NCBI GenBank assembly: GCA_028823995.1
Contig: JAPPFD010000009.1
Location: 20,361-84,360 of the forward strand
Length of the DNA stretch: 64,000 nucleotides
Direction: 5' to 3'
Origin: a bacterium
GTDB lineage: Bacteria > Actinomycetota > Acidimicrobiia > Spongiisociales > ZC4RG35
In this document: positions 3,213-57,192 of the stretch, piece by piece
Numbering within the stretch: the first letter of the stretch is position 1
Layout: each line of letters starts with the position of its first letter
Position numbers and translations under genes: made by a program
The notes under the pieces: model-generated
What the model saw: only the letters and a program-made list of their open reading frames with translations
The model's database searches: none
Told to the model about the DNA's origin: nothing

Positions 3213-3338
3213 CGCGCCTGAACCAGTCTCGGACCTAGTTTCTTGCTATCTGTGGGAGGGGGCATTTTCTCTAACTTCACCCATCAGGGCTGTGATTGTC
3301 ATCCCTGGTGTCTGTCCGGCCCCTGTGGGAGTCGTTGC

Positions 3339-14728: not shown

Positions 14729-16215
14729 GGGAGCCGGGAAGGAAGCGTCGGCACGACCTCGACGCGCTGAGGGGGTTCGCCATGTTGCTGGGGGTGGGGC
14801 TGCACGCTGCGTTGGCCTTCTTCCCGGCGCCGTGGTGGGTGCAGGACCGGACCTCGAGCTTCGACGGCCCCTACGACGAGTTCCTGTGGGCGGTGCACGG
14901 GTTCCGCATGCCGGTGTTCTTCCTGATGAGCGGGTTCTTCACCGCCCTGCTGTGGCGGCGGCGCGGGCTGCGGTCGCTCCTCGGCCACCGACTGCGGCGG
15001 GTGGCCCTGCCGCTCCTGATCGGCCTGGTGACCCTGGTGCCGGCGGTGGACTGGGTGGGTGAGAGGGCCGTGGTCGCCCAGGCGGAGCCGCTGGTGGAGT
15101 CCGGGGACATCATCGGGTTGGTGTTCGTCGGAGACATTGAAGGGGTGGAGGGGTTGCTGGACCGGGGCGTGGACATCGAGACGCGGACCGAGCCCGGCGG
15201 GTGGACCTCCCTCCATGCCGCCGCGTTCACCGGCAACGCCGAGATGGTGGAGTTGCTCATATCCAGGGGGGCGAAGCCGGCGGTCACCGCCGACGCCTCC
15301 GATGGGGAGACGCCCCTGGGACTTGCCTTCCACTTCGGCCACGAGGAGGCCACCGATCTGCTGGTTGCCCACGAGGGGAGGGATCCCCTTCCCGAGTCGA
15401 TGGAGTGGTCGGACATCCCCGGCTGGGCGGAGGGCGCGGAGGACCCCGAGGAGGACCGGCTGACCCAGATCGAGCACCTCCATCACCTCTGGTTCCTGTG
15501 GTTCCTCCTGTGGCTGGTGGCGGGATTCGCGGTGGTGGCGGCGATCGCCGATCGGCGGGAACCCGGCCGGGGGGTGTGGCCGGGGAGGGTCATGTGGCTG
15601 ATGATCCCATTGACCCTCATCCCGCAGTTGGAGATGGGCGGCGGAGGGTCCTATCCCATCTTCGGGTCGGACACCTCCGACGCGCTCCTGCCCCTTCCCC
15701 ACGTGCTGGCCTACTACGCCACGTTTTTCACGTTCGGAGCGCTGATGTACGGCCGCCGGAACCGGAAGGGAAACCTCCTGGTCGAAACCATCGGCAGGCC
15801 CTGGTGGCTGGTTCTCTCCGTCTCGTTCCTGGTTGTGCTGCCCTTCGGGCTGCATTTCACCTTCGTGGAGTTCCAGTGGCAGGTGGCGTCCGTCTTGCAG
15901 GTGCTCTACGCCTGGGGCATGTGCTTCGGCCTGATGGGGCTGTTCCGGGTGTTGCTGCCCCGGGAACGCCGGGGGATCCGGTATTTGTCCGACTCCGCCT
16001 ATTGGGTCTACCTGGTGCATCTCCCCCTGGTTGTGGCCGCCCAGATGTTGGTCTTCGATTGGGACCTCTTCGCCGGAGTCAAGTTCCTCCTGATCTGTGG
16101 GGTGGTGACGGCCGTCTCTCTCCTCTCCTATCAGGCGTTCGTCCGCTACACGCCGATAGGAGCCATGCTGAACGGAAAGAAGGTCCGTACCGCCCGGTCC
16201 GGAGCCTCTGGCTAG
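14725..16215 (+). CDS. acyltransferase family 3 (OpgC/OafA-like) membrane protein with inserted ankyrin repeats
   Basis: The N-terminus LDALRGFAMLLGVGLHAALAF... and multiple TM helices fit acyltransferase_3. An insert of ~130 aa contains two or three ANK repeats (GWTSLHAAAFTGNAEMVELLISRGAKP; DGETPLGLAFHFGHEEATDLLVAHEG). Confidence 0.75.
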   Translation: MREPGRKRRHDLDALRGFAMLLGVGLHAALAFFPAPWWVQDRTSSFDGPYDEFLWAVHGFRMPVFFLMSGFFTALLWRRRGLRSLLGHRLRRVALPLLIGLVTLVPAVDWVGERAVVAQAEPLVESGDIIGLVFVGDIEGVEGLLDRGVDIETRTEPGGWTSLHAAAFTGNAEMVELLISRGAKPAVTADASDGETPLGLAFHFGHEEATDLLVAHEGRDPLPESMEWSDIPGWAEGAEDPEEDRLTQIEHLHHLWFLWFLLWLVAGFAVVAAIADRREPGRGVWPGRVMWLMIPLTLIPQLEMGGGGSYPIFGSDTSDALLPLPHVLAYYATFFTFGALMYGRRNRKGNLLVETIGRPWWLVLSVSFLVVLPFGLHFTFVEFQWQVASVLQVLYAWGMCFGLMGLFRVLLPRERRGIRYLSDSAYWVYLVHLPLVVAAQMLVFDWDLFAGVKFLLICGVVTAVSLLSYQAFVRYTPIGAMLNGKKVRTARSGASG

Positions 16216-20344: not shown

Positions 20345-20529
20345 CCTCCCTTCCAGCGGGAGGATGAGGTCCGACGGACAGGCTTTTTAGCTGTGCCCCT
20401 CCCTGTCGTGGAGCCAAGCAGAGTGCTACTACTAACCCAAATACGGCCGACCGGGACGATGAATAACGATTGGGTAGCCACCGCGCACTGTCACAACCCC
20501 GTGTTACCTTGTGGATTGATGGAAGTCGT

Positions 20530-21759
20530 ATGACCACCTATTCGCCTGCCTCTTCGCTTGGGTGGCTCGACTTCGACGCCGCCGCCACAGAGCGAGTCGC
20601 CACGCTGTTGCGCTCACTCCAAGAGCCCACCACGCTGGATGTCCTAGGTCTGGGATCGGTGCGCGACGCTTTCTCCGGAATGCTGCACCCCGGCACTTCG
20701 TACATCCAGACAAAGCTGCGGTATTTCATGTTCCTGCCATGGACATTTCAGCGCATTGAACAGGACCAGGTTGCACCCGGAGATTTCTTCCAGCGCCTTC
20801 GCCACGATGAGGCCCTGCTCATCGACTGTCTGCGCCATCTGGGACCCGGTAATCGAGTGATCGGCTTCCAGGCCGGTAGAAACTTGAAGCGTATGCCCAG
20901 TTCCATCTACTGGGGAGGACTCGGGGACTGGGGACTGCGACGACTGCCCCTGAGCCTGGGCGAGTACGCACAGCGGGCAGCCGCCCTGGGCCGGTACCGG
21001 GCGGCGCGCGATGACGACGGCATCGTTACGGACCCAAGCAGTTCGATGTGGGCCCCGCTGCCGCCTGCTCCCGAGGGATTCCTGGAGGCCGACATCACCT
21101 TCAAGTTGAGGAGCGTGGAGGCCGCCACCATAGTCGAGAACATTCGGCATCGGCAGGGGGACACCCTTCTGGCCTGGTTGTTGACCCAGCCACACCTCGC
21201 CGCCGGCTGCGACTTTCCATGGGAGGTGTCCAGCCACGGCATGCGCGCGGAACTAACCGATGTGGTTCGCCACGCCCGGTGCTTCTCCGAGTTGACCGCC
21301 GGTCCGCAGTACGCCTACAACGTCCTGGTGGCGCGCCGGGCTCGACAGGAGCTCGGTTGGGACACCGCCAGGCTGTTGGAGGGCCAACTCGGTCGCCTGC
21401 AGCGCTGGGTCGAGATGGTCCAGAGTCGCCACGGGGAACTTTTATCCTGGGTCGACGACCTGCCAGCATTCTGGAAGCTTCTTGATAGGTACCGCATCCG
21501 GCGGAGTACCCGTGACTTTATTGCCGGGATCGTCCGTACGGCCGTTGACAATCCTGAGGGGTTCGAGCAAGATTCGACGGTTCATGAGCAGATCCGCCTT
21601 CGGGAGATCCGGTTGAAGGGGAAGCGGGCCCGTCTGGCTTACCGCGCCGCACTGGAGAACTGGAACCAAACTGCGGCCGGCGGCCAGCTCGGGTACCGGT
21701 GGTCCATCGCTAAGAACTACATTGGCGAGATCGCCGACGCGTTGGCGGGTGGCCGCTGA
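20530..21759 (+). CDS. hypothetical protein, first gene of the PLD/SNF2 operon (409 aa)
   Basis: The ATG at 20530 has GGAAG 5 nt upstream. I recognise no catalytic motif (FMFLPWTFQRIE, IYWGGLGDWGLRRL). Its stop overlaps the start of the PLD gene (TGATG at 21757-21761). Confidence 0.5.
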   Translation: MTTYSPASSLGWLDFDAAATERVATLLRSLQEPTTLDVLGLGSVRDAFSGMLHPGTSYIQTKLRYFMFLPWTFQRIEQDQVAPGDFFQRLRHDEALLIDCLRHLGPGNRVIGFQAGRNLKRMPSSIYWGGLGDWGLRRLPLSLGEYAQRAAALGRYRAARDDDGIVTDPSSSMWAPLPPAPEGFLEADITFKLRSVEAATIVENIRHRQGDTLLAWLLTQPHLAAGCDFPWEVSSHGMRAELTDVVRHARCFSELTAGPQYAYNVLVARRARQELGWDTARLLEGQLGRLQRWVEMVQSRHGELLSWVDDLPAFWKLLDRYRIRRSTRDFIAGIVRTAVDNPEGFEQDSTVHEQIRLREIRLKGKRARLAYRAALENWNQTAAGGQLGYRWSIAKNYIGEIADALAGGR

Positions 21760-23642
21760 TGCTACTGCCGACCAACCGGCTGACGCTGATCGATGCGATG
21801 CGCCCCCCGGCCGGATTCGGGTTGGAGTCCGCCATGGCGGTGACGTTCACCCTTAACTTGAGCGCACTTCTAGCGGCGCCCGCCGCCTTCGCCCTTGCCG
21901 GCCTGCGGGATACCACTGGTGATGCCAGTGGGTCTACGCCAGTGGAGCTGGTTCACGCACTTCGTGCTCATGCTCACAAACTCACCGTCTTCAGCGAGGC
22001 CGGCGGGATCAGTTTGCCGCCGCCCAGCAGGGCATTCGCCTTTCTGGAGCGGGCGGTGGTCCCGGTCAGGGCCCCCGGAGGAGGGATCGTGCATCCCAAA
22101 GTCTGGGTGCTGCGCTACCAGCCATCTGATGATTCAAGGGGCGGCGACCCGGCTGCGCAGTGCCTTCGCGTGCTTATCGCCAGTCGCAATCTGACCTTCG
22201 ACGAGAGTTGGGACACTCTGTTAAGACTTGATCAGACGCCAGACACTCGCGGCGCGAGGCTGGACGGGGTGGGGAGACTGTTCAGGGGTCTGCTCGACGC
22301 TGCCGTTGGGAGAGTAGAAACAGAGCACGCAGACCGGGTGCGCTTGCTGTCCGAAGCTCTCCAGGACGCACGGTTCGAGTTACCAGCGGGCGTTGATGAC
22401 CTGGCGATCCATCTGTTTGGCCTCGGAGAGGCGTCCCCGCCATTCCCAAGGGATCCCGAGCGCGCGCTGATCATTTCACCCTTTCTGACCGACGACTTCT
22501 TCGGAGGGGTGTATCCCGGGCGGGTGGACACGCTGGTCAGCCGGCAGGAGGCACTCGACGGGCTGCAGGAGGGCACTCTCGGCTCCATCCAGAACAAGTA
22601 CGTCTTCGACGACGGCAGCCCTTTCGAACACGCGGAACCAGTCGGCGGACGCACCCAGGAGGACAATGGCGAACACCCCGGCGCCGCCGCACCACCGGCG
22701 CCGTCACCCGCCGACCCCGGCCGGCCCCTGGTCGGAGTCCACGCCAAGGTCTTCGCCTTCGAGACGGGAGATCGGATCAGACTGTTCGTCGGGTCGGCCA
22801 ACGCCACCGGCCCTGCTTTCGGCGGCAACGTCGAGATACTGGCCGAACTCGGAGGGTCGGTCTCCGATTTGGGGATCGATCGACTCTGTGGCGGCGATGG
22901 GGAGGATCATGGGTTGCTCAGCCTGTTCCGCGACTACCACCGGGTCGTGGTGGAAGACGGCAATGGGAACGGCGTCTCCATCCTTGACCGGACGCGTCGT
23001 CGTATTGCTCGCCTTCCTATGGTGGGAGTAGTGGAGGGCACCGGTGAAGGAGACAACGAGTGGGCCGTGACCTACCGCTCGGATGAGTCCGTGCCTGCCG
23101 TGGAGGGGGTCGAGATTCACTGCTGGCCGCTGACCACTCCCGGCAATCGGCGGCAGGTCGGGACGGCCGGGCCCTTCGAGGCGCGTTTTGAGACAACCCT
23201 GGAGGCTCTCAGCAGTTTTCTGGCATTCGAACTGACCCATGAGAGCGGTGAGCAGACGGGATTCGTGGTCCCCGTGCCGCTGGACGGAGTGCCCGAGCAC
23301 CGGATCCGACGCTTGGTTGGAGTGCTGATCGGCAATGCCGAGCGGTTCCTGCGTTATCTGGTGGCGCTCCTGTACGACGACTCCGATCAACTCGACCTCC
23401 AAGAAGTCTCCAGGACTCTTGACCGATCGGTATCCGATGGGACTGGCTCGATCAGCTTTGCAGTGCTGGAACGGTTGCTGCGAACCATGAGGAGCGATCC
23501 GAGGAGACTTGAGGGACTGCACCCACTGATCGCCGATCTTCGGGCTGACGATGCATTGCCGCCGGGCTTTGCCGAACTCTGGGACGCCATCTACGACGTG
23601 GCTATTAAATGTACTTGTCAAAAGGGCGCCAACCTGCCATGA
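21759..23642 (+). CDS. phospholipase D-superfamily (two-HKD) nuclease-like protein
   Basis: A degenerate first HKD motif, HPKVWVLRY...VLIASRNLT, is followed by a canonical second motif, GVHAKVFAFETGDRIRLFVGSANATGPAF (HxK-x4-D-x6-GSxN). This resembles Nuc/NgoFVII/DrmC-type PLD nucleases. The stop overlaps the helicase start (ATGA at 23639-23642). Confidence 0.7.
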   Translation: MLLPTNRLTLIDAMRPPAGFGLESAMAVTFTLNLSALLAAPAAFALAGLRDTTGDASGSTPVELVHALRAHAHKLTVFSEAGGISLPPPSRAFAFLERAVVPVRAPGGGIVHPKVWVLRYQPSDDSRGGDPAAQCLRVLIASRNLTFDESWDTLLRLDQTPDTRGARLDGVGRLFRGLLDAAVGRVETEHADRVRLLSEALQDARFELPAGVDDLAIHLFGLGEASPPFPRDPERALIISPFLTDDFFGGVYPGRVDTLVSRQEALDGLQEGTLGSIQNKYVFDDGSPFEHAEPVGGRTQEDNGEHPGAAAPPAPSPADPGRPLVGVHAKVFAFETGDRIRLFVGSANATGPAFGGNVEILAELGGSVSDLGIDRLCGGDGEDHGLLSLFRDYHRVVVEDGNGNGVSILDRTRRRIARLPMVGVVEGTGEGDNEWAVTYRSDESVPAVEGVEIHCWPLTTPGNRRQVGTAGPFEARFETTLEALSSFLAFELTHESGEQTGFVVPVPLDGVPEHRIRRLVGVLIGNAERFLRYLVALLYDDSDQLDLQEVSRTLDRSVSDGTGSISFAVLERLLRTMRSDPRRLEGLHPLIADLRADDALPPGFAELWDAIYDVAIKCTCQKGANLP

Positions 23643-26600
23643 CCGAGCAACGCATCGATGTGGCCGCGGCGTTGGCGGACCTGAAGGACTTTCAGCGGCG
23701 TACGGCTGAATGGGCGTTCGAGCGCATGTTCGCGGATCACGATCCTGCACTCCGGTTTCTGGTGGCCGACGAAGTTGGCCTCGGCAAGACCCATGTCGCC
23801 AAGGGGGTGATAGCGCAGGTCATCGACTACCTTGGGCGAACGGGTGATAGGCGCCATGATGTCGTCTATGTGTGCTCGAACGCTGCCATCCTTCGCCAAA
23901 ACCTCAGAAAGCTCACGCCCGAAGGTATAGAGCCGACAATCGTGGAGGTCGACCGGCTCACGATGCTCCCTCAAGTCGAGCTAAAGGAGGAACACGAAGG
24001 AAGACCAGGCATCAACCTATTGGGGATATCGCCGGGCACATCGCTGCGGTTCGGCCGCAACACAGGCACATTCCCGGAACGGGCCCTTGCCTATACGTTC
24101 CTTCGATCCCACTGGGGCTGGAGTGCTATGAAGAAGCGCCGAGCCCGCTGGATTTTCTGGTTAGGCATCACAGCAGGTGATCTTGACGCGCGGCTCAGGG
24201 CATGCGAACGCTGGTATCGCCCACGCATCACGGGAGCGTTGCCCGAGTTCGCCAAACGGCTCGAGGAGTTGGACACCGAGCGACGGACAAACGGACAGCA
24301 ACCAATTCGGGCATTATTTGAGGAAATTGTCGACGGACTCAGGTACAAACGTTCTTTCCCCCGCCGGATTCGGACACTGCAAGGAGAATTGATAGCGGAA
24401 CTACGCCGTGTGATGGCCATCGTCGGTATTGATGCGCTTCGCCCTGACCTCATTGTGCTGGACGAGTTTCAGCGATTCAAAGATTTGCTCCATTCTCATC
24501 CCGACAACCTGGCCGCAGAACTTGCCAAAAGGCTGTTCGAATACGAGGACCCAGAGAGCGGCCGACCAACCCGCACTCTGTTGCTCTCCGCCACCCCCTA
24601 CCGCATGTACACCACCGCCGACGACGCCGACGACGATCATTACACGGACTTCCTGGATACGTGCCGGTTTCTCTACGGGGATTCCGGGCGTGTCGAGGGA
24701 CTACGGCGCCGGTTTGCTGATCTCCGCCGGACGCTCACCACCTTGGGGGCGTTCGAAGACACCGAGATGGCGTTGAACACTGCGGCGGACATCTGCGGGA
24801 AGATCGGTTCGGAGTTGCGGCAGGTAATGGCCCGGACTGAACGGCTGGCCGCCACTCCCGACCGAGACGGGATGCTCGGGGACCACGTAGTACCGGCGTC
24901 GGTGGGGCCCGACGACCTACGATCGTATCTCCGGTTCGGCGAGATCTCCCGGGTCGTGGGGTATCCCGATCCCACCGAGTACTGGAAATCGGCGCCGTAC
25001 CTGATCAACTTCATGGAACGTTACAAGCTCAAACAAGCCGTGGAGCAGGCCGCCGAGGCGGGCCGGTTCCTCGACAGCGGCCTGCTCGAGCAGGGTCCGG
25101 GACTGTTGAGTTGGGAGGAGGTGGAGCGTTACCGGGCCATCGACCCTCAGAACGGGCGGCTACGGTGGCTGCTGGAAGACCTGCAGGGCTCCCGGGCCTT
25201 CGAGATTCTGTGGGTGCCGCCGTCAATCCGCTACTACAACACGGGATCGGTCTATGAATCCGAAGAGACCCACAGGTTTACCAAGCGATTGATCTTCTCG
25301 GGTTGGGTGATTGTCCCGAAAGTGGTGTCGTCGCTGGTCAGCTTCGAGGCCGAGCGCCGGGCTTATCGGGACCGCCACCACAAATACACGGCCCAGTACC
25401 GACGGCGCGGGGGCGGGCGGCTGACATTCCGCACCACCGAGCGGACCGCCGGTGATCGCCGCTCCGGGGAAGCCACCGGCGACCGGCGCGCCGCCTCGAT
25501 GACCACCCTGTTGCTCTGCTGGCCGAGCATCACCCTCGCTCAACTGGGGGATCCCCTGCATTTGGATACCGCAACGCGGGACCGCCCCGATGTGATCGCC
25601 TCCATCACTAAGTGGGTTGAGGCCGCCTTCGCACCATTGGCGGGCTCTGCGCCCTCCGAAGGTGCGGTTGACCAACGGTGGTACTGGGCCGCCCCGATGC
25701 TGCTCGACTACCGGGACTACCCAGAGGTCGTTCGTCAGCTGCTGTCCGATCAGTCGGCGTGGCTCGGGGAGGGAGGACGGCCCGACCAGAACTTCCGAGC
25801 GCACCTCGCCGAAGCCTGGACATTGCTCGACCACGGTGTCGAAGCCCTAGGTCGGCCTCCTGAGGACCTCTATATGGTGCTAGCCGAACTGGCGCTAGGA
25901 GGGCCGGCCCAGTGCGCGCTCCGGGCAATCCGCCGAGTGGTGGGCCTGCCGCACGATCACCGGGCGATGACGGCCAGCGCGGCCCTGATCAGCGAGGCCT
26001 TCCGGAGTTTCTTCAACGCCCCGGAGGTCACGGCCATAGTCGCCGGTGACCAAACGGAGCACACGGAGTCCGAGCAAGCGGCTCCGGTTGTCGGCCGATA
26101 CTGGCGCGACGTGGCGGCTCACTGTGTAGATGGCAATCTGCAGGCAGTACTCGATGAGCACGCTCATGTTCTCCGAGATTGGCTGGGATATGTCAGACTG
26201 GGCGACTCTGCACAACGGGCCGAGGCCGCCGAAGACATCGCCGGAAGGATCGGCGGGTCCCTGCGACTTCGAACCTCGGCCCTGCGGGTGGACATTCCTC
26301 GTCGGACCGACGATGGCCAGGCGGAGGTTCTCTCTGTGAGCCGCATGCGCACCCGCTTCGCGGTGACCTTCGGCGACCAGGCGCTCGACGAGGGCGGCCA
26401 GGCGCGGGTGGGCGCCGTGTCGGTCGCCTTCAATTCGCCGTTCTGGCCGTTCGTGTTGGCTTCTACCTCGGTTGGGCAGGAAGGACTGGACTTTCACCTG
26501 TGGTGCCATGCCGTGGTGCATTGGAACCTTCCGACCAGTCCGGTGGATCTCGAACAGCGCGAGGGTCGGGTCCATCGCTACAAATGCCATGCGGTTCGTC

Positions 26601-26965
26601 GGAACATCGCCGAAACGTTCGGGCCTGAAGTCCTGAGGGCGGGAGAGCCCGAAGGTGATCTCTGGCAGGCCCTCTTCGACCGAGCGGCATCCGAGGGAGG
26701 ATCCGACGACGGGGAGATGGCGCCCTATTGGGTGTTTCACCAAGGCCAAGCAAAGATCGACCGTTTGGTACCCATGCTGCCCTTCAGCCGCGAGTCGGCG
26801 AGACTTCCACGACTGCGGAAGTCCCTCGCCATCTACCGCCTCGCCTTCGGCCAGCCCCGCCAGGAGGAACTGGTCGAACTGTTGAGCGATCGCATCAGTT
26901 CCGACGACCTGCGCGGTCGGCTCTCGGAACTGCGGATCGACCTGGCGCCTCCACCCGTAAACTAA
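23639..26965 (+). CDS. SNF2-like superfamily-2 helicase/ATPase (1108 aa)
   Basis: Motif I is LVADEVGLGKTHVAKG and motif II is LIVLDEFQRFKDL. The helicase C lobe has STSVGQEGLDFH (motif V) and LEQREGRVHRYK (motif VI). The I-II spacing of ~225 aa is unusually long, and a further ~550-aa insertion precedes the C lobe. Confidence 0.8.
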   Translation: MTEQRIDVAAALADLKDFQRRTAEWAFERMFADHDPALRFLVADEVGLGKTHVAKGVIAQVIDYLGRTGDRRHDVVYVCSNAAILRQNLRKLTPEGIEPTIVEVDRLTMLPQVELKEEHEGRPGINLLGISPGTSLRFGRNTGTFPERALAYTFLRSHWGWSAMKKRRARWIFWLGITAGDLDARLRACERWYRPRITGALPEFAKRLEELDTERRTNGQQPIRALFEEIVDGLRYKRSFPRRIRTLQGELIAELRRVMAIVGIDALRPDLIVLDEFQRFKDLLHSHPDNLAAELAKRLFEYEDPESGRPTRTLLLSATPYRMYTTADDADDDHYTDFLDTCRFLYGDSGRVEGLRRRFADLRRTLTTLGAFEDTEMALNTAADICGKIGSELRQVMARTERLAATPDRDGMLGDHVVPASVGPDDLRSYLRFGEISRVVGYPDPTEYWKSAPYLINFMERYKLKQAVEQAAEAGRFLDSGLLEQGPGLLSWEEVERYRAIDPQNGRLRWLLEDLQGSRAFEILWVPPSIRYYNTGSVYESEETHRFTKRLIFSGWVIVPKVVSSLVSFEAERRAYRDRHHKYTAQYRRRGGGRLTFRTTERTAGDRRSGEATGDRRAASMTTLLLCWPSITLAQLGDPLHLDTATRDRPDVIASITKWVEAAFAPLAGSAPSEGAVDQRWYWAAPMLLDYRDYPEVVRQLLSDQSAWLGEGGRPDQNFRAHLAEAWTLLDHGVEALGRPPEDLYMVLAELALGGPAQCALRAIRRVVGLPHDHRAMTASAALISEAFRSFFNAPEVTAIVAGDQTEHTESEQAAPVVGRYWRDVAAHCVDGNLQAVLDEHAHVLRDWLGYVRLGDSAQRAEAAEDIAGRIGGSLRLRTSALRVDIPRRTDDGQAEVLSVSRMRTRFAVTFGDQALDEGGQARVGAVSVAFNSPFWPFVLASTSVGQEGLDFHLWCHAVVHWNLPTSPVDLEQREGRVHRYKCHAVRRNIAETFGPEVLRAGEPEGDLWQALFDRAASEGGSDDGEMAPYWVFHQGQAKIDRLVPMLPFSRESARLPRLRKSLAIYRLAFGQPRQEELVELLSDRISSDDLRGRLSELRIDLAPPPVN

Positions 26966-36852: not shown

Positions 36853-37701
36853 TCAGGCGGACAACTCCGCCTCCACGCCCAGCCGACCGTGCTCCGAGTA
36901 CGCGCCCATGGTCCATCGGCGGGTCCCGGCCTCCTCGTCGGGCCCCCCGCGCAGGCGCAGGGCGTCGCCGCAGAAGAACGGCGAGCGCGCCCGGAAGGAA
37001 AAGCGCGCCGGTCCGGCCACGCCGTTGCGCCGGCCCAGGTCCGCTAGGAGCATGGCGGTGAGCGGGCCTTGCACCACCAGGCCCGGGTATCCCTCCACAC
37101 CGGTGGCGTAGGAGTGGTCGTAGTGAATGCGGTGGGAGTTGTTGGTGAGGGCCGAGAACCGGAACAGGAGAACCGGGTCGGTGGTGACGTCCTGGCTCCA
37201 CGGCCTGCGGGGCGGCCCGGGGCCCGAGGCCGGTTCCCGGGGAACCGAGGGCGGGGAGTCGGTGTAGATCAGGTTCTGGGACTCGGTGAGCGCCGGTCCC
37301 CCCTCTCCCCAGATCCGGTATTCCACCGTCACCACCACCAGGGCGCCGCTGCGCCCGTCCTTGTGGGTCACGCTCTTCACGGTCGCCTGTTGCCGGGCCT
37401 CTTCTCCCACCAGCAGCGGACGGTGGAAGACGGTGGTCCCGCCGGCGAACATCCTCCTTCGCTGCGGAACGGGGGGGAGGAAACCTCCCCGGCGGGGATG
37501 GCCGTCATCGCCGGTCTCGGACCGCCGGGCCGACGGGAGGAAGTAGAGCCAGTGCCACATGGGAGGAAGGGGGTCTCCCTCCTCTGCGGCCGGACCATCC
37601 AGATCGAAGAGCGCGGAAAACGCCGCGACCGGCCAGGGGTCGAGACGCTGATGGCGGATCTCGGAGTTTCCTATCCAATCGGTCAGGTTCGAAGAGTTCA
37701 T
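36853..37701 (-). CDS. MaoC-like / FAS1-like dehydratase (hotdog fold) protein
   Basis: The true start MNSSNLTDWIGNSEI... is an ATG at 37699-37701 that overlaps the upstream stop (ATGA). The C-terminal region carries the hotdog-fold signature. Confidence 0.6.
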   Translation of the reverse strand: MNSSNLTDWIGNSEIRHQRLDPWPVAAFSALFDLDGPAAEEGDPLPPMWHWLYFLPSARRSETGDDGHPRRGGFLPPVPQRRRMFAGGTTVFHRPLLVGEEARQQATVKSVTHKDGRSGALVVVTVEYRIWGEGGPALTESQNLIYTDSPPSVPREPASGPGPPRRPWSQDVTTDPVLLFRFSALTNNSHRIHYDHSYATGVEGYPGLVVQGPLTAMLLADLGRRNGVAGPARFSFRARSPFFCGDALRLRGGPDEEAGTRRWTMGAYSEHGRLGVEAELSA

Positions 37702-38513
37702 AAGGCGGTCTGGGATCGGCGGGCCTGAAGTTGCAGTCGCACAAAGGGTACGACGTAGACGCCGTCGCCGGCCCGGGTGAGGTCCGCCACCTTCTCCGAC
37801 ACTTCGGCTACCAGGTCCTCGAAAACCGGAGGGGGCAGGCGGGTTCGGTACCCGGTCAGGGTCTGGGTGCGCAGCCAGCCGGTCAGACCGGTGCGGGAAA
37901 AGGGGCGAGGCTGGGTCTCGGTCCGCAGGTCCTCGGCGCCGCCGAAGGGCGAGTCGGCCACCATCTCCCGGTAGCGGCGGAGGGACGGCCACGGGTGATG
38001 GGGCAGGCGGCCTTGCAGGTATTGGCGGTAAGGCGCCCGGTCGGCGACCGAGAAGATGATCCTCCGGATCTCTTCGATGTTGGTCTCTCCGGCAAAGCTG
38101 GCCACCAGCCTGCCGCCGGGGATCAGGGCGTGGAAGATCCTCTCCAGCACCAGGGGGTGTTCGGGGATGGGAATCCAGTGCAGGCAGGCGATCGAGACCA
38201 CCGCCGCGAAGCGCCTCTCCCAGCCCAGATCCTGGACCCGGCGCACCTCGAAGCGGAGCCGGGGGCCCTCATGGCGCCGGGCCTGTTCGATCTGGCTCGG
38301 CGAGGCGTCGATCCCGATCACCTCGGTTCGGGGGTAGTGGTCCGCCAAGGCCGCGGTCAGATCGCCGGCGCCGCACCCCACGTCCAGGAGGAAGTCTCCG
38401 GCGCCCAGGCCGAAGTCCCACACCGCCGGCGGGTCGAAGGCCCGATGGTGGGCGGTGTTCTCCCGGTACTCCGAACCGCTCCAGGCATCGGGCGCCCCTG
38501 CCACCGGGTTCAT
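37698..38513 (-). CDS. class I SAM-dependent methyltransferase (Tam/trans-aconitate methyltransferase-like)
   Basis: Motif I LLDVGCGAGDL, with ALIPGGRLV downstream. The true start is MNPVAGAP...; the ORF-track N-terminus is spurious. Confidence 0.75.
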   Translation of the reverse strand: MNPVAGAPDAWSGSEYRENTAHHRAFDPPAVWDFGLGAGDFLLDVGCGAGDLTAALADHYPRTEVIGIDASPSQIEQARRHEGPRLRFEVRRVQDLGWERRFAAVVSIACLHWIPIPEHPLVLERIFHALIPGGRLVASFAGETNIEEIRRIIFSVADRAPYRQYLQGRLPHHPWPSLRRYREMVADSPFGGAEDLRTETQPRPFSRTGLTGWLRTQTLTGYRTRLPPPVFEDLVAEVSEKVADLTRAGDGVYVVPFVRLQLQARRSQTAL

Positions 38514-38673
38514 GTGCAGGACAGGCTCATCCGAGCCGTGGCGGTCTGAGCGGAAGGACCGATCCTGAACGGAGACATGTCGAAAGAGCCAAATAGCATC
38601 CGGCCGGCGGTCGTCATTGTCGAATAACATACATGGCCCGTTCCCGGCCGGCCGTGGCGAAGGCCGGAGGGGA

Positions 38674-39732
38674 TCAGGGTGTCCAGGAACGGGCGCGCCG
38701 GAGGAAGACGTCGGGGTCGGCCACCCACTCGGCGTATCCGATCGTCCGGTGATCGGTGAGGTAGTCGAGTTTCTGATCCAGGCAAGCAATCAGAGCCGGT
38801 TCGGTGGCGGGAAGGGTCCACCCACCCAGTTCCACCTCCGGATCGAGAGCGGTCACCGCGAAGGCCCCACCGTCCCCGTTGGCGCGGGCCGCCTCGAGGT
38901 TCCCGATCTCACCGCGGGCCACCGCGTCTATCGACCCGTCGGCCAGGGCGTCGAGGAGTTCCGTCTCTCCGGTGTCCTCCCCCAGGTAGACCACCACCGG
39001 CATCTCGGAAGAGGGAGGATCGAGCCGCCGCCGACTCTCCAATCGGGAAGACGATCCGGCGGCGGTGATGACATATCGGTCCGACCCGTCCGCCACCAGG
39101 GGGCCGGCGTCGGTGGCGATCCGGGTTCCTTCGGCCAGCGTCCCGCGGGGATCGGCCAAGCCGGTGAGTTGCAGCAGCCGGGCCTCCCCGGTGGTGGCCG
39201 CCAGAACCCCCACGCGGACTTCTTCGGTCAGGTCGGCGTGGGTGGCGTAAAGGGAGGCTTCTGCCGCCCGGACCAGGAGCGACTGGCGAAAGCCGATGTG
39301 GCCCGAGGTGAAGACCACTACCTCGTCGCCGGCGGCGTCACGGGTGCGGGATTCGAGAATGGTGATTCCGCCACCGGCTACGTCGAAGTCGTCTCCGGCG
39401 GGCAGGAGCCAGATGTCCGGCCAGTCCGCCACGGGGATGCGGTCGAAAACCAGCCCGGCGCCGTCCATTTCTTCCAAGGCGGTGAGTAGGTCGGCCTCGT
39501 ATCCCACGTGGTCGGCGAACCCGGCCGAGTCGGGATCGGGATCGGCGCTGGCGCTGACCGGTTCGAAGAATGCGTAGAAGGCGAAGCGGAGTGTCCGCCC
39601 CTCGGCGCAGGCGCCCGAAACGGCCTCTGGCTGGTCCGGGGAGGTCTGTCCGCAGGCCGCCAGGATGGTCAAGACCACTGCAGCAAGCGAGACAAGCAAC
39701 CGGCCTGATAAGGAATGAGTGGTCATTCTCAA
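38674..39732 (-). CDS. secreted lipoprotein, probable solute-binding protein
   Basis: Signal peptide with lipobox (LLVSLAAVVLTILAACGQ). The family is unclear. Confidence 0.45.
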   Translation of the reverse strand: MRMTTHSLSGRLLVSLAAVVLTILAACGQTSPDQPEAVSGACAEGRTLRFAFYAFFEPVSASADPDPDSAGFADHVGYEADLLTALEEMDGAGLVFDRIPVADWPDIWLLPAGDDFDVAGGGITILESRTRDAAGDEVVVFTSGHIGFRQSLLVRAAEASLYATHADLTEEVRVGVLAATTGEARLLQLTGLADPRGTLAEGTRIATDAGPLVADGSDRYVITAAGSSSRLESRRRLDPPSSEMPVVVYLGEDTGETELLDALADGSIDAVARGEIGNLEAARANGDGGAFAVTALDPEVELGGWTLPATEPALIACLDQKLDYLTDHRTIGYAEWVADPDVFLRRARSWTP

Positions 39733-47611: not shown

Positions 47612-48043
47612 ATGAAACAGACCCCGGTGCTGGAGGGCGCGTTCGTCTCCGACCCCGAGCCTGCCCTGGTGGGAAGCAAATGCCGCTCATGTGACACGGT
47701 GGCCTTCCCGGCCAGCTTCACCTGCCCGAATCCACGCTGCGCCCGAAAGGACGTGGTCTCAACCCCCCTTTCCCGGACCGGACGGCTGGCCTCCTGGACC
47801 ACCGTCCACTTCCCGCCCCCGCCGCCCTTCGTGGCGCCCGACCCGTTCGAGCCGATCACCGTCGTGGAGGTGGAGTTCGCCTCCGAGGGAATCCAGGTGG
47901 TGGGTCCCCTGGCCGGCGCCTCTGCCGAGGGGCTCCGGATGGGGATGGCGATGGAGACGGTCGTGGAGCCCTACTACTCCGACGACTCGGGAGAGGTGAT
48001 CGGATGGAAGTTCCGCCCCGCCGAGGGTGATGCCGGTGAGTGA
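47612..48043 (+). CDS. Zn-ribbon/OB-fold protein (DUF35 family)
   Basis: A CRSCDTVAFPASFTCPNPRC rubredoxin-like ribbon is followed by an OB fold. It is immediately upstream of a thiolase-like gene, as is typical for DUF35. Confidence 0.75.
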   Translation: MKQTPVLEGAFVSDPEPALVGSKCRSCDTVAFPASFTCPNPRCARKDVVSTPLSRTGRLASWTTVHFPPPPPFVAPDPFEPITVVEVEFASEGIQVVGPLAGASAEGLRMGMAMETVVEPYYSDDSGEVIGWKFRPAEGDAGE

Positions 48044-49232
48044 TGTGATAGTGGCCGGCGTGGGGCTCCACCCCTGGGGGAAGTTCCCCGAGAAGAGCTG
48101 GGTCGAGATGGGCGCCGAGGTGGCGATGGGGGCGGTGGCCGACGCCGGCATGGAGTGGACGGACGTGGAGGCGATGGTCTCGGGCGCCATGCAGTGGGGA
48201 GGGTCGACGGGCATGCGGTCGGGCAACACCATCGCCGCGGCGCTGGGGGAGACCGGGGTGCCCATCGCCAACATCAACAATGCCTGCGCCTCGGGGGGTT
48301 CCCTGATGAGGGCGGCGTACGCCATGATCACCTCGGGGATGCACGACTCGGTGCTGGTGATCGGGACGGACAAGTCTCCCAAGGGGTACTTTCCCAGCGT
48401 GCCGGTGCTGGCCGACGAGCCGCGCCCTCCGGTCGACATGGTGCGCTGGCAGGTGGGGGTCCCCAATCCGGCCTACTGGGCGCTCGAGATGCGAAAGCGC
48501 ATGGAGGCCTACGGGTCCACCGATGAGCACCTCGCCCAGGTGAAGGTGAAGAACTCACGCCACGGGTCGCTCAATCCCTACGCCCGCTACCGGAAGGCGT
48601 TCACGCTGGAGCAGGTGATGGCCTCACCCATGGTGTGCGATCCACTCCGCCTGCTGGAGATCTGCGCCACCTCCGACGGCGCCGCCGCGGTGGTGCTGGT
48701 CAGTGACAAGAAAGCCCGCCGGTTGGGAGTGAGCCCGCTGGTCAAGGTTGCGGCATGTTCCCTGGCCTCTGGCGAGTTCGGCGATCCAACCATCCGCATC
48801 CCGCTTCTGGCGGCCGCCTCCGACGGGGCCGCCACCGCGCCTTTACTCTCCGAGAGCCGCCTGGCCGCCCAGATGGCCTACGAGCAGGCCGGCCTGGGGC
48901 CCGAGGACATGGACTTCGTGGAGTTGCCCGACAACTCCTCATGGCACGAGTTGCAATACCTGGAGACCATGGGGTTCTGCGACCCGGGCGAGGCCGAGAA
49001 ACTCCTCGACGCGGGCGAGACCGCGCTGGGGGGACGGTTGCCGGTGTGCCCCAGCGGCGGGTTCTCGTCCTTCGGGGAGGCGACCATGGCCCAGGGCATC
49101 CTCCAGATCGTCGAGGTCACCTGGCAACTCCGCGGGACGGCAGGCGCCCGTCAGGTGGAGGGCGCCACCAAGGCCATCACCGAGGTATACGGCGCCCAGG
49201 CCAACAACTCCGCCTGCATCCTCACCACCTGA
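48027..49232 (+). CDS. thiolase-family protein (SCP-x / lipid-transfer-protein type)
   Basis: VIVAGVGLHPWGKFPE...NNACASGGSLMRAA thiolase motifs. It pairs with the DUF35 protein. Confidence 0.8.
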   Translation: MMPVSDVIVAGVGLHPWGKFPEKSWVEMGAEVAMGAVADAGMEWTDVEAMVSGAMQWGGSTGMRSGNTIAAALGETGVPIANINNACASGGSLMRAAYAMITSGMHDSVLVIGTDKSPKGYFPSVPVLADEPRPPVDMVRWQVGVPNPAYWALEMRKRMEAYGSTDEHLAQVKVKNSRHGSLNPYARYRKAFTLEQVMASPMVCDPLRLLEICATSDGAAAVVLVSDKKARRLGVSPLVKVAACSLASGEFGDPTIRIPLLAAASDGAATAPLLSESRLAAQMAYEQAGLGPEDMDFVELPDNSSWHELQYLETMGFCDPGEAEKLLDAGETALGGRLPVCPSGGFSSFGEATMAQGILQIVEVTWQLRGTAGARQVEGATKAITEVYGAQANNSACILTT

Positions 49233-50774: not shown

Positions 50775-51530
50775 GTGTCACTTATGTCCGGCCGGACTAC
50801 TACTTTTGGATTCGGCGCCCTTTGCGACTGTGGCGTTCTGGCAAAAGGCAGATGCAGGGTGTGCAGTCTGGCTAAGTGCGCTACCTGCTTTGCCGCCAAC
50901 TGGACATGCCATGAATGTGTGCGGCGGGAGAAGCAGCAGGCCTTCTTGACAATGGAGAGGGAAGCCCTCGCCTTTCATCATCTGTGGAGGCAACACCGGG
51001 CCCAACGGGAGGCAATGGCGAAGAGGGCCATTGAGCTAGCCGCCAAACAACCGCCGAACGACAGGGTCTATCAAGGTCCCTCTTTCCGAAAATTCGCCTC
51101 CGCGGTACTGATTATGAGTCGCCATAACGGCCCGCAGGGGACTCACTACCTCCTTGATGCCCGCGCTGGCACTGGCTACGAAGCCACAGCATTCTCTCCA
51201 AGGGGTAGGAGGCGAAGAGGACCGATTGACTTTTACCGGGCCAAAGAGACCATAAACACCGAATCTCTTCTAACAGAGATGGCGCAATTCGAGTTGATAG
51301 CAAGATGTAGGGCCCCCGCGGGTCTTGAACGAAGAGTTGTGTTTGGGGGGTCAGACAGAACTCATTATGAGTTTTGGTATCTCGGGGGTAAGAGACACCG
51401 GGAGCCGGTTCCTCCCATACTCAGTTGGGACGTCGCACTTCATTGGACACACGACCCTCCTGGCAGACGGCCACCCTTTCGGAAAGAGTTTTGGAGATTC
51501 TGCGAAGTCGATGTTCCCCTTCACCGCTAG
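50775..51530 (+). CDS. hypothetical Cys-rich protein (N-terminal 8-Cys zinc-ribbon-like cluster)
   Basis: CDCGVLAKGRCRVCSLAKCATCFAANWTCHEC, with a basic C-terminus. It sits in a visibly lower-GC island between 50640 and 51640. The alternative start is ATG 50784. Confidence 0.45.
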   Translation: MSLMSGRTTTFGFGALCDCGVLAKGRCRVCSLAKCATCFAANWTCHECVRREKQQAFLTMEREALAFHHLWRQHRAQREAMAKRAIELAAKQPPNDRVYQGPSFRKFASAVLIMSRHNGPQGTHYLLDARAGTGYEATAFSPRGRRRRGPIDFYRAKETINTESLLTEMAQFELIARCRAPAGLERRVVFGGSDRTHYEFWYLGGKRHREPVPPILSWDVALHWTHDPPGRRPPFRKEFWRFCEVDVPLHR

Positions 51531-54615: not shown

Positions 54616-55089
54616 ATGAAGCTCTACGTGAAAGCAGCGGTGTTCACCCTGGTCGTGCCGGGTGGGTTCGGGGTCCTCGTCCCCGCCCTGCTGGTGCGGG
54701 GTCGGGAACCGGCGGATGGGGCGCTGATGGTGCTGGCCGTCTGTTTGATGGCCATCGGGGCAGCCATGTACCTGCGTTGTGTTTGGGACTTCGTGGTGTT
54801 CGGGAAGGGGACACCCGCTCCCATCGACGAGCCGAAGCGACTGGTCGTTCGCGGTCTCTACCGGTATACCCGAAATCCCATGTACGTGGGGTTGATAACT
54901 CTGATCGCCGGGTGGGCCATACTCTTCGGATCGGTGGTCCTGGCGTGGTGCGGGGTCTTCCTGTTCATCTTCTTCTCCTTATTCGTGCGCATCTACGAAG
55001 AGCCGCACCTGTCCCGGAAGTTCGGCGCCGAGTACGACGCCTACAAGGCTCGGGTGGGCCGTTGGCTACCCCGGTTCTTCCACAGGTAG
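54616..55089 (+). CDS. membrane methyltransferase of the isoprenylcysteine carboxyl / phospholipid methyltransferase (ICMT/PEMT) family
   Basis: A 4-TM protein with RYTRNPMYVG and the C-terminal EEPHLSRKFGAEYDAYKARV motif. Confidence 0.7.
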   Translation: MKLYVKAAVFTLVVPGGFGVLVPALLVRGREPADGALMVLAVCLMAIGAAMYLRCVWDFVVFGKGTPAPIDEPKRLVVRGLYRYTRNPMYVGLITLIAGWAILFGSVVLAWCGVFLFIFFSLFVRIYEEPHLSRKFGAEYDAYKARVGRWLPRFFHR

Positions 55090-55263
55090 GATTTCGCGGG
55101 CATTCTCGCCTGGTGGTTGAGAAACGTCTATGATGTGTTGCCCAGGTAGGTACTCATGGGCAAACAGATGGACACACACTCAGGCATCCACTCCTGTCTT
55201 GGCAAGGGGATTCCGGTGGCGGGGCCGACCGTTAGATTGAATTACCCTCTCGTTGCTCCCTGA

Positions 55264-56313
55264 ATGATGTTGGCGAAACTCCGCGACCTGTACAGGGGAC
55301 TCCATAATGCGCACCGCGGGACGGACGTGGCCCGTCGGGTGCAACGCTTCGACGGTTGGATCGATAGAACGTCGGCCGTCGAGACCGACGGGAGGGGTTA
55401 CGACCACACCGAAACGGTCGAGGAGTACTACGACCTTTGCAATGAGTTCATGGTTTACGGTTGGGGTGAGTCCCTGCACTTCGCGCCGCTTTCGCCTCAG
55501 GAGACCCTGGGGGAGTCCCAGGTCCGGCATCAGCGACTGATGATCGCCAAACTGGATTTGCGCGAGGGCATGAACGTGGTCGACGTTGGTTGCGGAATCG
55601 GCGGCCCGATGCGCCGCGTGGTCCGTGAGGCCGGTGTCAGAGTGGTCGGGGTCAACCGCAGTGGCGTTCAGCTTGACAGGGCGAGGTCGTTGAACGCAGA
55701 GGCGGGACTCGATCACATGGTCGACTACCTGGAGTGCAGTTTCATGGACATGGGGGCTGTTCCGGACCACACTTTCGACCGGGGCTACGCCATCGAATCG
55801 ACGTGCCATGCGCCGGACAAAGTGGGAGCGTTCGCCGAGATCCACCGGGTGCTGAAGCCCGGAGCCCTGTTCTGGGGTCAGGAAATGTGCATGACGGACA
55901 GGTTCGATCCTGACAACAAGCGGCACCGGGCCATCAAGCAGGAATTGATGCGCGGCATCGCACTCTCGGAGATCGCCACAGTGGATCAGGTGAACCGGGA
56001 CCTTGTGGCGGCCGGATTCGAGGTCGTCGAAGGCATCGACCGGGCTGTCGAGGAGAACGGCCAGGCGGCAACACCGTGGTACCAGCCAATGGAAACCTCG
56101 CGCAGAACAGCGGGCAGCGGCCTGCGCCGGATTCCGCTTGGCCGCAGGGCGCTCATCAAGGTATTCAAGGCAGCAGAGGTGGTCAGGATTTTTCCCAGGG
56201 GTTCCGCGGAGGTCGTCAGGCTGCTGGATCGGACCGCAAAGGCCTACGTGGCGGGCGGGAAGACCGGGATTTTCACGCCGCTGTACTGCTTCCTGGCTCG
56301 CAAGCCTTCTTGA
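55264..56313 (+). CDS. sterol 24-C-methyltransferase (Erg6/SMT) homolog
   Basis: Erg6-type signatures are present: EEYYDLCNEFMVYGWGESLHFAP, DVGCGIGGP (SAM motif I), YAIESTCHAP, KPGALF, PWYQP and the Sterol_MT_C-like tail AGGKTGIFTPLYCFLARKP. The second one is YAIEATCHAP in yeast. Confidence 0.8.
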   Translation: MMLAKLRDLYRGLHNAHRGTDVARRVQRFDGWIDRTSAVETDGRGYDHTETVEEYYDLCNEFMVYGWGESLHFAPLSPQETLGESQVRHQRLMIAKLDLREGMNVVDVGCGIGGPMRRVVREAGVRVVGVNRSGVQLDRARSLNAEAGLDHMVDYLECSFMDMGAVPDHTFDRGYAIESTCHAPDKVGAFAEIHRVLKPGALFWGQEMCMTDRFDPDNKRHRAIKQELMRGIALSEIATVDQVNRDLVAAGFEVVEGIDRAVEENGQAATPWYQPMETSRRTAGSGLRRIPLGRRALIKVFKAAEVVRIFPRGSAEVVRLLDRTAKAYVAGGKTGIFTPLYCFLARKPS

Positions 56314-56424
56314 CCATCTCCTTTCCAAATAAGCGATCCCGAGGTCGGATAGACGGTCACCTTGCGCCTTAGCCAAAGGACTTGCTTGTCAACCGAGCTT
56401 GGATGGGCCGGTAATCTGGCCGGT

Positions 56425-57192
56425 ATGAGTTATTTCGCAGGCAAGGATTTCGTCGTGACCGGGGCAGGCCGAGGGATCGGTCTGGCCACGGCCGAGATGC
56501 TGGTGGCCGAGGGCGGGAGAGTCTGGTGTTTCGACCTGGCCGAAGAGCGCCTCCGGGAGGCTGTCGGAGGTATGGGAGGACCCGGAACCGCCATACCCGT
56601 GGTGGCTGACATCTCCGACGAGGGGTCGGTGGCCGAGGGCTACCGGCAGGTCTCGGAGGCAACCGGAGGAGTGCTGTCAGGCTTGGCTCACTGCGCGGCG
56701 ATCGGGCGGGCCTACCTGTTCGAGGAGATGACCTGGGAGGACTGGGAGGTGGAGTTGAAGGTGAACGTGTTCGGGACCTATCTGATGACCAAGCACGCCG
56801 CCCCCCTGATGCGCGCCGCCGGAGGGGGTCGGATCGTCAACATCGCCTCCAACGCGGCAAAGGTCCCCGGCCCCTACTCCGCCCCATACAACTCTTCCAA
56901 GGCGGCGGTGATCAGCCTGACCCGCTCCTCGGCCAAGGCGTTGGCGCCCGACATCGCGGTCAACTCCATCTGTCCTGGACACGTCGACACCCCGATGCGG
57001 AGCGGCTTCGGCGTGGAGGCGGGCCGGCTCGTGGAGGGGGTGGACCTCGACGCGGCGGCGGCGACCGCGCAACTGGGAAGGCCCGCCCGTCCCGAGGAGA
57101 TCGCATCGGCGGTTCTGTTCCTGCTCAGTCCGGCCGCGGTGTTCATCAACGGTGAGGACCTGAACGTCAACGGCGGGATAGTGATGTACTGA
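56425..57192 (+). CDS. SDR family oxidoreductase (FabG-like)
   Basis: The true start is MSYFAGKDFVVTGAGRGIGLA... (ATG 56425). SDR motifs NAA and YNSSK are present. Confidence 0.85.
   Translation: MSYFAGKDFVVTGAGRGIGLATAEMLVAEGGRVWCFDLAEERLREAVGGMGGPGTAIPVVADISDEGSVAEGYRQVSEATGGVLSGLAHCAAIGRAYLFEEMTWEDWEVELKVNVFGTYLMTKHAAPLMRAAGGGRIVNIASNAAKVPGPYSAPYNSSKAAVISLTRSSAKALAPDIAVNSICPGHVDTPMRSGFGVEAGRLVEGVDLDAAAATAQLGRPARPEEIASAVLFLLSPAAVFINGEDLNVNGGIVMY

Follow-up and report, generated by a model that had tools for sequence, protein, structure and literature searches.

A solitary sterol methyltransferase-like gene from a divergent sponge-symbiont branch in an Acidimicrobiia genome

The subject of this analysis is a 64,000-nucleotide stretch of an Acidimicrobiia genome (GenBank assembly GCA_028823995.1, contig JAPPFD010000009.1, positions 20,361 to 84,360), hereafter the window, and in particular a gene at 55264-56313 that encodes a 349-residue protein of the sterol methyltransferase (SMT) or Erg6 family. 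The list of open reading frames (ORFs) contains three frames on the plus strand at this locus, 54616-55089, 55264-56313 and 56362-57192, which agrees with the positions and shared direction given in an initial annotation of the sequence. That annotation treated the three genes as a lipid-tailoring module around an Erg6-type enzyme. We find instead that the central gene is a 1.33-kb accessory single-gene insertion, and its product is best filed as an added member of an already sampled, sponge-symbiont-specific SMT branch and not as a canonical Erg6-type enzyme. The explanation that we favor, and hold to be more probable than its rivals taken together, is that this is an intact, selectively kept SMT-family enzyme acting on a different sterol-type substrate or position, present as a solitary insertion in the Acidimicrobiia backbone. 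The features of the locus are as follows.

54616..55089, plus strand: PEMT/ICMT-family small membrane methyltransferase of 157 amino acids with four hydrophobic segments, a backbone gene (Pfam PEMT).
55074..56405, no strand: 1.33-kb segment absent from a syntenic relative, with the SMT-like gene and its 5' and 3' spacers as sole content (blastn against locus L144).
55264..56313, plus strand: SMT/Erg6-family methyltransferase-like gene, 349 amino acids, from a divergent sponge-symbiont clade (ORF, Pfam and Erg6 alignment).
56425..57192, plus strand: classical short-chain dehydrogenase/reductase (SDR; FabG- or acetoin-reductase-like), a backbone gene heading an SDR-E1-alpha-E1-beta-E2 group (adh_short_C2 and gene calls).

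The 349-residue protein matches the Pfam domain Sterol_MT_C (PF08498) over residues 287-348 with 59.7 bits (cutoff 21.7), and it also matches the class I methyltransferase domains Methyltransf_11 and CMAS (66 bits). The CMAS match is not discriminating, because the active canonical SMT of the sponge-metagenome locus L091 matches CMAS too (54.5 bits). An enzyme of the cyclopropane fatty acid (CFA) or mycolic-acid type was considered and rejected, since scores were far below the cutoffs of the NCBIfam models (CfaB 53.5 versus 650, PRK11705 48 versus 400, mycolic_MTase 45.7 versus 390) and Sterol_MT_C is present. CFA and mycolic acid methyltransferases share the class I fold and the olefin-methylating chemistry, but CMAS proteins lack the Sterol_MT_C domain found here. 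The proposal that the gene is an SMT homologue and not of CFA or mycolic-acid type therefore holds.

The initial annotation further described the motifs YGWGESLHFAP, YAIESTCHAP and AGGKTGIFTP...ARKP as mapping almost residue for residue onto yeast Erg6. All three motifs are present in the protein, but the likeness was overstated, as only 35% of the full-length protein is identical to Erg6, Region I carries Y81M and F89L, and T78 is N. In all SMTs shown to be functional, 25 residues (Erg6 numbering) are conserved (Brown and Welander, 2025; bioRxiv 10.64898/2025.12.19.695621). In the Erg6 sequence used for the comparison, the 25 published positions as well as Y81, Y83 and D249 fall exactly as numbered in that paper. 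The window protein holds 23 of the 25 residues, the exceptions being T78N and F89L. The five residues that are essential in yeast Erg6 (H90, D125, G129, P133 and E195) are all present and are invariant in the 121 sequences of the clade to which the protein belongs. The same holds for D125, G127, G129, G132 and P133 of Region II, which binds S-adenosylmethionine (SAM) and reads VVDVGCGIGGP in the window protein. On the other hand, the aromatic sterol-binding Region I (Y81-E-Y/F-G-W-G-x-x-F89-H-F) is not matched, the window protein having M81 and L89.

These differences recur throughout the clade. An exhaustive HMMER search supplied 87 canonical SMT representatives; 98% of them have Y81, 100% have F89 and 0% have the residues of the clade at these positions. 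Within the clade, M81 is found in 120 of 121 sequences and both L89 and I249 in all 121, with S, G or N at position 78. Judged from these sequences, the substitutions in Region I and at position 249 are fixed clade characters and not private to the window protein. Relative to the 87 canonical sequences the clade-defining changes are Y81M, F89L, E108Q, A112I, I137V, D177S, A196S, Y223Q, W225M, I245L, E246M and L290M, and four of these (Y81M, F89L, Y223Q and W225M) turn conserved pocket aromatics into aliphatic or polar residues clade-wide. Region III and the neighborhood of position 249 are also changed, whereas the SAM site is not. Positions 81 and 249, which are Met and Ile in the window protein, were placed at most 5 angstroms from the docked sterol by Brown and Welander (10.64898/2025.12.19.695621). 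The clade can thus be defined in sequence by M81, L89, Q223, M225 and G-I-A at 248-250 (Erg6 numbering).

In a neighbor-joining tree read together with the motif table, this M81/L89/GIA branch stands apart from all 87 canonical representatives; three deeper sisters (P0122, P0124 and P0125) also have L89 and group with the clade. Placement in the SMT family, as initially proposed, is thus borne out, and placement with the canonical enzymes is not. With canonical SMTs (yeast Erg6, plant SMT1/2 and active bacterial SMTs such as the Aplysina aerophoba protein '1 of 2') the window protein has in common the class I domain, Sterol_MT_C, Region II, H90, E195, G217, W286 and the C-terminal GGK..FTP...ARKP. 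It differs from them by Y81M, F89L, T78N, Y223Q, W225M, A196S and I249 at an overall identity of 35-39%, and assayed relatives from its clade are inactive on delta-24(25) or delta-24(28) sterols. The gene is intact, under purifying selection and not decaying: its dN/dS is 0.13-0.24 against nine relatives of 70-96% identity. A second class I methyltransferase in the window (37698-38789, minus strand, 363 amino acids; Methyltransf_25 70 bits, weak CMAS 29.5 bits) lacks the Sterol_MT_C domain and matches a canonical SMT only weakly (26% over 106 amino acids).

Information on activity comes from metagenomic SMTs that were assayed with desmosterol and 24-methylenecholesterol (Brown et al., 2023, PMC10070321; 10.64898/2025.12.19.695621). 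Four assayed proteins carry, in those blocks of the 2025 supplementary alignment that are legible, the signatures ...YDH[TA][EQ]TV..YYDL and GGPMRRV.RE.G.RV, for which the window protein has the forms YDHTETV and PMRRV.RE.G.RV. These are A. aerophoba JGIcombinedJ30088_10000835 '2 of 2', a Nitrospira protein '2 of 2' from a metagenome-assembled genome (MAG), P. ficiformis LXNJ01004423 and Theonella Chromatiales '2 of 2'. Every active SMT in these blocks is of a different type at both stretches. The four proteins sit in or next to the 'No activity' group, the 11 rows of which equal the '11 SMTs that did not methylate' of the text. Since all functional SMTs keep the 25 residues according to the paper, proteins with L89 belong among the inactive ones, and the same statement settles where the 'No activity' label starts, which is ambiguous after character recognition. 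As far as this source can be read, the assayed clade members must have given no product from desmosterol or 24-methylenecholesterol.

The assayed contigs JGIcombinedJ30088_10000835 and LXNJ01004423 were absent among our metagenome matches and were paired with loci through sequence tags in sibling assemblies and through gene order. L091 and L092 contain the 17-residue tag of A. aerophoba '2 of 2' unchanged, as do L118 and L128 that of LXNJ01004423. Outside the stretch where CYP51 is expected, the gene order in L091 is that of the published cluster, namely sdmA-like Rieske, ERG24, SMO-OSC fusion (OSC, oxidosqualene cyclase), canonical SMT, small ORF, SMT-like gene and GPP34-P450. The canonical SMT of L091 has 25 of the 25 residues together with F81, F83 and G249, as published for the propylating enzyme. 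The SMT-like paralogue of the same locus, with S78, M81, L89 and G-I-A, shares 72% identity with the window protein. For the assayed clade members as a group, identity to the window protein is 64-72%.

The window protein belongs to the same clade as the 'second-copy' bacterial SMT homologues of Brown et al., with which it shares this level of identity, G-I-A at 248-250, about 35% identity to Erg6, an identical Region I (YYDLC[SN]EFMVYGWGESLHFAP) and the PMRRVVREAGVRV signature. The genomic setting differs. Second-copy homologues adjoin a GPP34-P450 fusion, and that of A. aerophoba is also part of a full OSC-CYP51-ERG24-sdmAB cluster that includes an active SMT, whereas the window copy is a lone insertion into an Acidimicrobiia metabolic backbone.

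The branch is large. More than 2,800 database proteins match the 349-residue protein at E<=1e-10, the best 120 all being at least 71% identical, and 468 loci match in species-representative genomes, so the earlier remark on the rarity of bacterial SMT homologs no longer applies to the sponge and coral habitat. The tight clade (at least 70% identity) comprises more than 120 clusters and the 468 genome loci. An identical protein is encoded in the MAG assembly GCA_028819835.1, and the closest genome among the matches listed is the Acidimicrobiia chromosome OZ242375.1 (96% identity). Taxonomy was taken from the 80 best of the 468 loci, nearly all of which are MAGs labeled Dehalococcoidia, Chloroflexota, SAR202 or Acidimicrobiia, with isolate names that we read as denoting sponges (SB06xx, RHO, COS) or the coral Porites lutea (Plut). 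In a metagenome collection of 241 million records, all 59 relatives came from sponge metagenomes of Aplysina, Petrosia or Sarcotragus. The sponge was assigned by accession prefix following the labels of the cited papers (LXNI, Sarcotragus; LXNJ, Petrosia; Ga0209xxx and JGIcombinedJ30088, Aplysina), and MKWU contigs were assigned to Aplysina because they duplicate an A. aerophoba JGI contig (L091, L092).

Among the matches listed, the clade is found only in sponge and coral symbionts (Dehalococcoidia/SAR202 Chloroflexota and Acidimicrobiia), and the source organism of the window is a sponge symbiont. A eukaryotic-like membrane acyltransferase with inserted ankyrin repeats (Acyl_transf_3; 14617-16215), of a kind typical for such symbionts, fits this lifestyle. 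In the clade tree the window lineage is nested among Dehalococcoidia and other Acidimicrobiia sequences, which is consistent with gene exchange between symbiont phyla. In some Dehalococcoidia genomes the clade gene is present twice, with about 110 kb between the copies (L012 and L013 of contig CBDEGP010000002.1), and in other genomes a second SMT-family gene lies two genes off in the same cluster (L056, L058). The habitat and host phyla are those of Kelly et al. (2022; PMC9531527), who found SMT1/ERG6 and ERG24-CYP51-LSS clusters enriched in MAGs from Ircinia sponges, including Acidimicrobiia and Dehalococcoidia, and described signs of horizontal transfer. In those MAGs SMT homologues are often scattered around the chromosome. 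The KEGG annotation used there did not separate the divergent clade, and the partner cluster treated below was not described.

Partner genes were counted over 108 related loci with at least 3 kb on both flanks. They were defined by de novo clustering of flanking ORFs, by Pfam scans and by independent precomputed annotations of JGI contigs, all of which agree. A GPP34-cytochrome P450 fusion occurs in 75 loci (69%), a KshA-like Rieske oxygenase in 62, an MMPL transporter with a sterol-sensing domain (SSD) in 58 and a flavin adenine dinucleotide (FAD) enzyme in 42; ERG24 is found in 7, a canonical SMT in 6 and an OSC in 2. In Chloroflexota members, an 825-residue MMPL/RND (resistance-nodulation-division) transporter with a Patched-type SSD lies directly upstream of the SMT-like gene on the same strand, often with a gap of 7-26 bp, and a 675-residue GPP34-P450 fusion is convergent with it. 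The neighborhood there also contains the Rieske/KshA_C oxygenase and an amine-oxidase-like FAD enzyme, and sometimes an LppX-type lipoprotein or a major facilitator superfamily transporter. An example of the conserved cluster is L082:2103-10578; L041, L058, L043 and about 50 further loci, all outside the window, have it as well.

The nearest solved relatives are CYP51 for the P450, KshA for the Rieske protein, LkcE for the FAD enzyme, and Patched-1, MmpL4/5 and HpnN for the transporter. Some clade members lie inside an OSC-CYP51-ERG24-sdmAB sterol cluster with a separate, active canonical SMT alongside. This context argues for a sterol or steroid-like substrate. No description of a cluster of MMPL-SSD, SMT-like, GPP34-P450, KshA-like Rieske and FAD genes was found in the searchable literature.

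In the window, the SMT-like gene has other neighbors. Domain matches (Pfam, NCBIfam) identify genes for acyl-CoA dehydrogenase, acetate/propionate kinase, 2-oxoacid dehydrogenase E1-alpha, E1-beta and E2, and acyl-CoA ligase, in agreement with the lipid, acyl-CoA and ketoacid dehydrogenase surroundings first noted. Likewise, no gene for an oxidosqualene or squalene cyclase or for a squalene epoxidase turned up when all 64 kb were surveyed, as had been stated, nor did one for a P450, Rieske oxygenase, ERG24 or SSD transporter. In the window lineage the whole region is syntenic, with 81-98% protein identity. A related genome (L144/L145; PEMT 76% identical) has the order PNPOx-ACAD-AckA-PEMT-SDR-E1-alpha-E1-beta-E2-ACSL, in which PEMT and SDR are 72 bp apart and there is no SMT gene. 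Nucleotide homology between the window and L144 stops at 55073 and restarts at 56406, with 50 bp in L144 in place of the segment. The difference is therefore a 1.33-kb segment with only the SMT-like gene. Its GC content is 0.55-0.63, compared with 0.67-0.69 in the flanks. At the edges of 55074-56405 we found no bracketing direct or inverted repeat and no insertion-sequence or att signature.

In the Acidimicrobiia genome, then, the SMT-like gene is solitary between a PEMT-family gene and the SDR of an acyl-CoA/2-oxoacid backbone, with gaps of 174 bp on the PEMT side and about 110 bp on the SDR side. The SMT-like gene and the SDR of the closest genome (L002) lie 9.9 kb apart, with an 8.8-kb block between them. 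This block (L002:11868-19587) encodes a KAP-family NTPase, an SNF2-helicase/PLD-nuclease protein and a 992-residue protein without Pfam match, and it looks like a defense island. Over the 108 loci, a PEMT gene stands beside the SMT-like gene in 4 and an SDR in 3, all of the window's own near-identical lineage. A scan of 54.4-57.4 kb found no promoter-like sites; its three terminator-like matches all lie within the PEMT gene, a count as expected from shuffled sequence.

Pfam matches support the names first given to the two flanking genes. The SDR protein matches adh_short_C2 with 176 bits. Its start is more likely at 56425 (ATG) or 56455 (GTG) than at 56362 (TTG), because homology to the SMT-less relative resumes at 56406, and the gene most plausibly belongs with the downstream 2-oxoacid dehydrogenase genes. 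The upstream 157-residue, four-segment protein matches Pfam PEMT with 61.6 bits (cutoff 25) and ICMT with 30.2 bits (cutoff 24). Against the NCBIfam equivalog for protein-S-isoprenylcysteine O-methyltransferase it scores 45, below the cutoff of 160, which makes it a PEMT/ICMT family member without assignable substrate. It has more than 7,000 homologues in many phyla, with unrelated gene neighbors in other phyla. The PEMT-family gene is a backbone gene that is functionally unlinked to the SMT-like gene, and the SDR gene has no tie to it either. A truncated ERG24 sterol reductase was also considered for this protein and rejected, as it is only 157 residues long and its ERG4_ERG24 score of 22.6 bits is below the cutoff of 27; the weak match presumably reflects superfamily-level similarity.

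Taken together, the most likely activity would be C-methylation, with SAM as the methyl donor, of a sterol-type lipid that is neither desmosterol nor 24-methylenecholesterol. The enzyme would still move a methyl group from SAM to a C=C bond of a sterol-type polycyclic isoprenoid, with a substrate or position that differs from canonical C-24 methylation. The conserved neighbors, i.e., the GPP34-P450, the KshA-like Rieske oxygenase, the FAD oxidoreductase and the SSD-containing RND transporter, probably prepare or handle this substrate in the majority of other symbionts. The window lineage probably acquired its gene horizontally from other sponge symbionts, and the enzyme would need either partners encoded in other parts of the genome or sterols that the host or the community supplies. 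The initial suggestion that the enzyme acts on a sterol-type lipid not necessarily made by this locus was a reasonable guess.

Several points weigh against this explanation. None of the clade's partner genes lies within the 64-kb window, and assays of the clade have so far all been negative. The 1.33-kb difference could alternatively be a deletion in the relative instead of an insertion. The trees are neighbor-joining trees that carry no support values. An AlphaFold2 model from a 44-sequence clade alignment reached a pLDDT of 55.6 and a pTM of 0.49, too poor to map the pocket, so the pocket location of the substituted residues is that of published models and mutagenesis of other SMTs. The Region I block of the supplementary alignment is illegible, and legible flanking blocks were used in its place; the status of two of the four assayed relatives is read from a table damaged in character recognition, together with the logical consistency argument given above. 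Finally, the 2023 text counts two inactive symbiont SMTs and our reading of the alignment three. On the published numbers themselves, the 2023 text (PMC10070321) implies four inactive metagenomic SMTs (two symbiont and two environmental), and the 2025 paper (10.64898/2025.12.19.695621) reports 11 inactive proteins, six of them new, which implies five from the 2023 set. One protein seems to have changed status, or to have been miscounted, between the two papers.

Of the other explanations, methylation of a non-sterol isoprenoid or other lipid, such as squalene or a hopanoid, survives best, although we regard it as unlikely. The SMT-like triterpene methyltransferases of Botryococcus provide a precedent, and the remodeled pocket, the failure of relatives to accept standard sterols and the lack of sterol genes in the window are compatible with it. 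So is the partner RND transporter, which is as close to HpnN and MmpL as to Patched. However, the best matches of the other partners are the sterol and steroid enzymes CYP51 and KshA, the clade adjoins OSC-CYP51-ERG24-sdmAB clusters, and the Sterol_MT_C domain is kept.

A more specific proposal, which we consider rather improbable, is that of a neofunctionalized side-chain methyltransferase whose target position or substrate is outside the range of canonical SMTs, acting on sterols processed by the GPP34-P450 and the KshA-like oxygenase and moved by the SSD transporter. Examples would be C-26/C-27 methylation of delta-25 sterols (codisterol) leading to aplysterol or 26-methylstigmastane-type side chains, C-22/C-23 methylation, or cyclopropanation. 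Side-chain-alkylated steranes (24-isopropylcholestane, 26-methylstigmastane) serve as evidence for the earliest animals, and a bacterial origin of their precursors is debated (PMC10070321). If the neofunctionalized proposal were true, the 'unconventional' sponge sterols that serve as biomarkers of Neoproterozoic animals would have a bacterial source in the symbionts, among them this Acidimicrobiia lineage, which would work on sterols of the host or the community.

The uniformly negative assays would also be accounted for by a paralogue that has lost catalysis and functions in sterol binding or regulation, but this is a doubtful explanation. Pseudoenzymes usually lose their cofactor motifs, whereas here SAM-binding Region II and the catalytic residues H90 and E195 are invariant in 121 sequences, and purifying selection acts over the whole protein. 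Even more doubtful is a canonical sterol C-24 methyltransferase with Erg6 function on delta-24 sterols, e.g., desmosterol or zymosterol. The SMT domain architecture, the retention of most conserved residues and the occurrence of some clade members inside de novo sterol clusters speak for it. Against it, relatives at 64-72% identity with the same Region I gave no product from desmosterol or 24-methylenecholesterol, F89 and T78, which every functional SMT keeps, are replaced and Y81 is Met, and the clade members in sterol clusters are accompanied by a separate canonical active SMT.

The initial idea of a 'methylation plus reduction' module, in which the PEMT-like methyltransferase, the SMT and the SDR would be co-functional in lipid side-chain tailoring, can be set aside almost entirely: the genes are adjacent and co-directional in the window and four very close relatives, but the module is unsupported because a related genome runs from PEMT straight to SDR with no SMT gene, and the insert in the closest genome, the restriction of both neighbors to the window's own lineage, the unrelated neighbors of PEMT homologues in other phyla and the intergenic gaps also speak against it.

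With an SMT-family enzyme acting on a different sterol-type substrate as the favored explanation, the window adds a member to a very large, sponge-restricted and selectively maintained SMT branch for which only negative assays exist. The analysis supplies a sequence definition of the branch, a conserved partner set and evidence of single-gene movement between symbiont phyla, and it recasts an 'inactive SMT homologue' as a hypothesis, open to testing, that the sterol substrate is a different one. Caution is needed in annotation: genes of this clade should not be named sterol 24-C-methyltransferase, nor counted as C-24 alkylation capacity in biomarker arguments.

Some other features of the window were recorded. 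At 47612-49232, genes for a ChsH2-type OB-fold/zinc-ribbon (DUF35) protein and an SCP-x-type thiolase are adjacent, and a luciferase-like monooxygenase gene and an acyl-CoA ligase gene lie upstream of them; such pairs occur in steroid side-chain degradation but are widespread in other settings too. A 251-residue Cys-rich ORF without Pfam match (50775-51530) is located in a low-GC stretch (0.593 over 50-52 kb), and L144 has an RCC1/WD40 gene at this position, which makes it a second variable spot in the backbone. An overlapping co-directional trio at 20470-26965 encodes a DUF6361 protein (177 bits), a 627-residue protein without Pfam match and an 1118-residue protein with only Helicase_C, and may be a defense or DNA-processing system. 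At 2523-4421, a DUF6036/AbiEii-like nucleotidyltransferase adjoins an N6/N4 DNA methylase.

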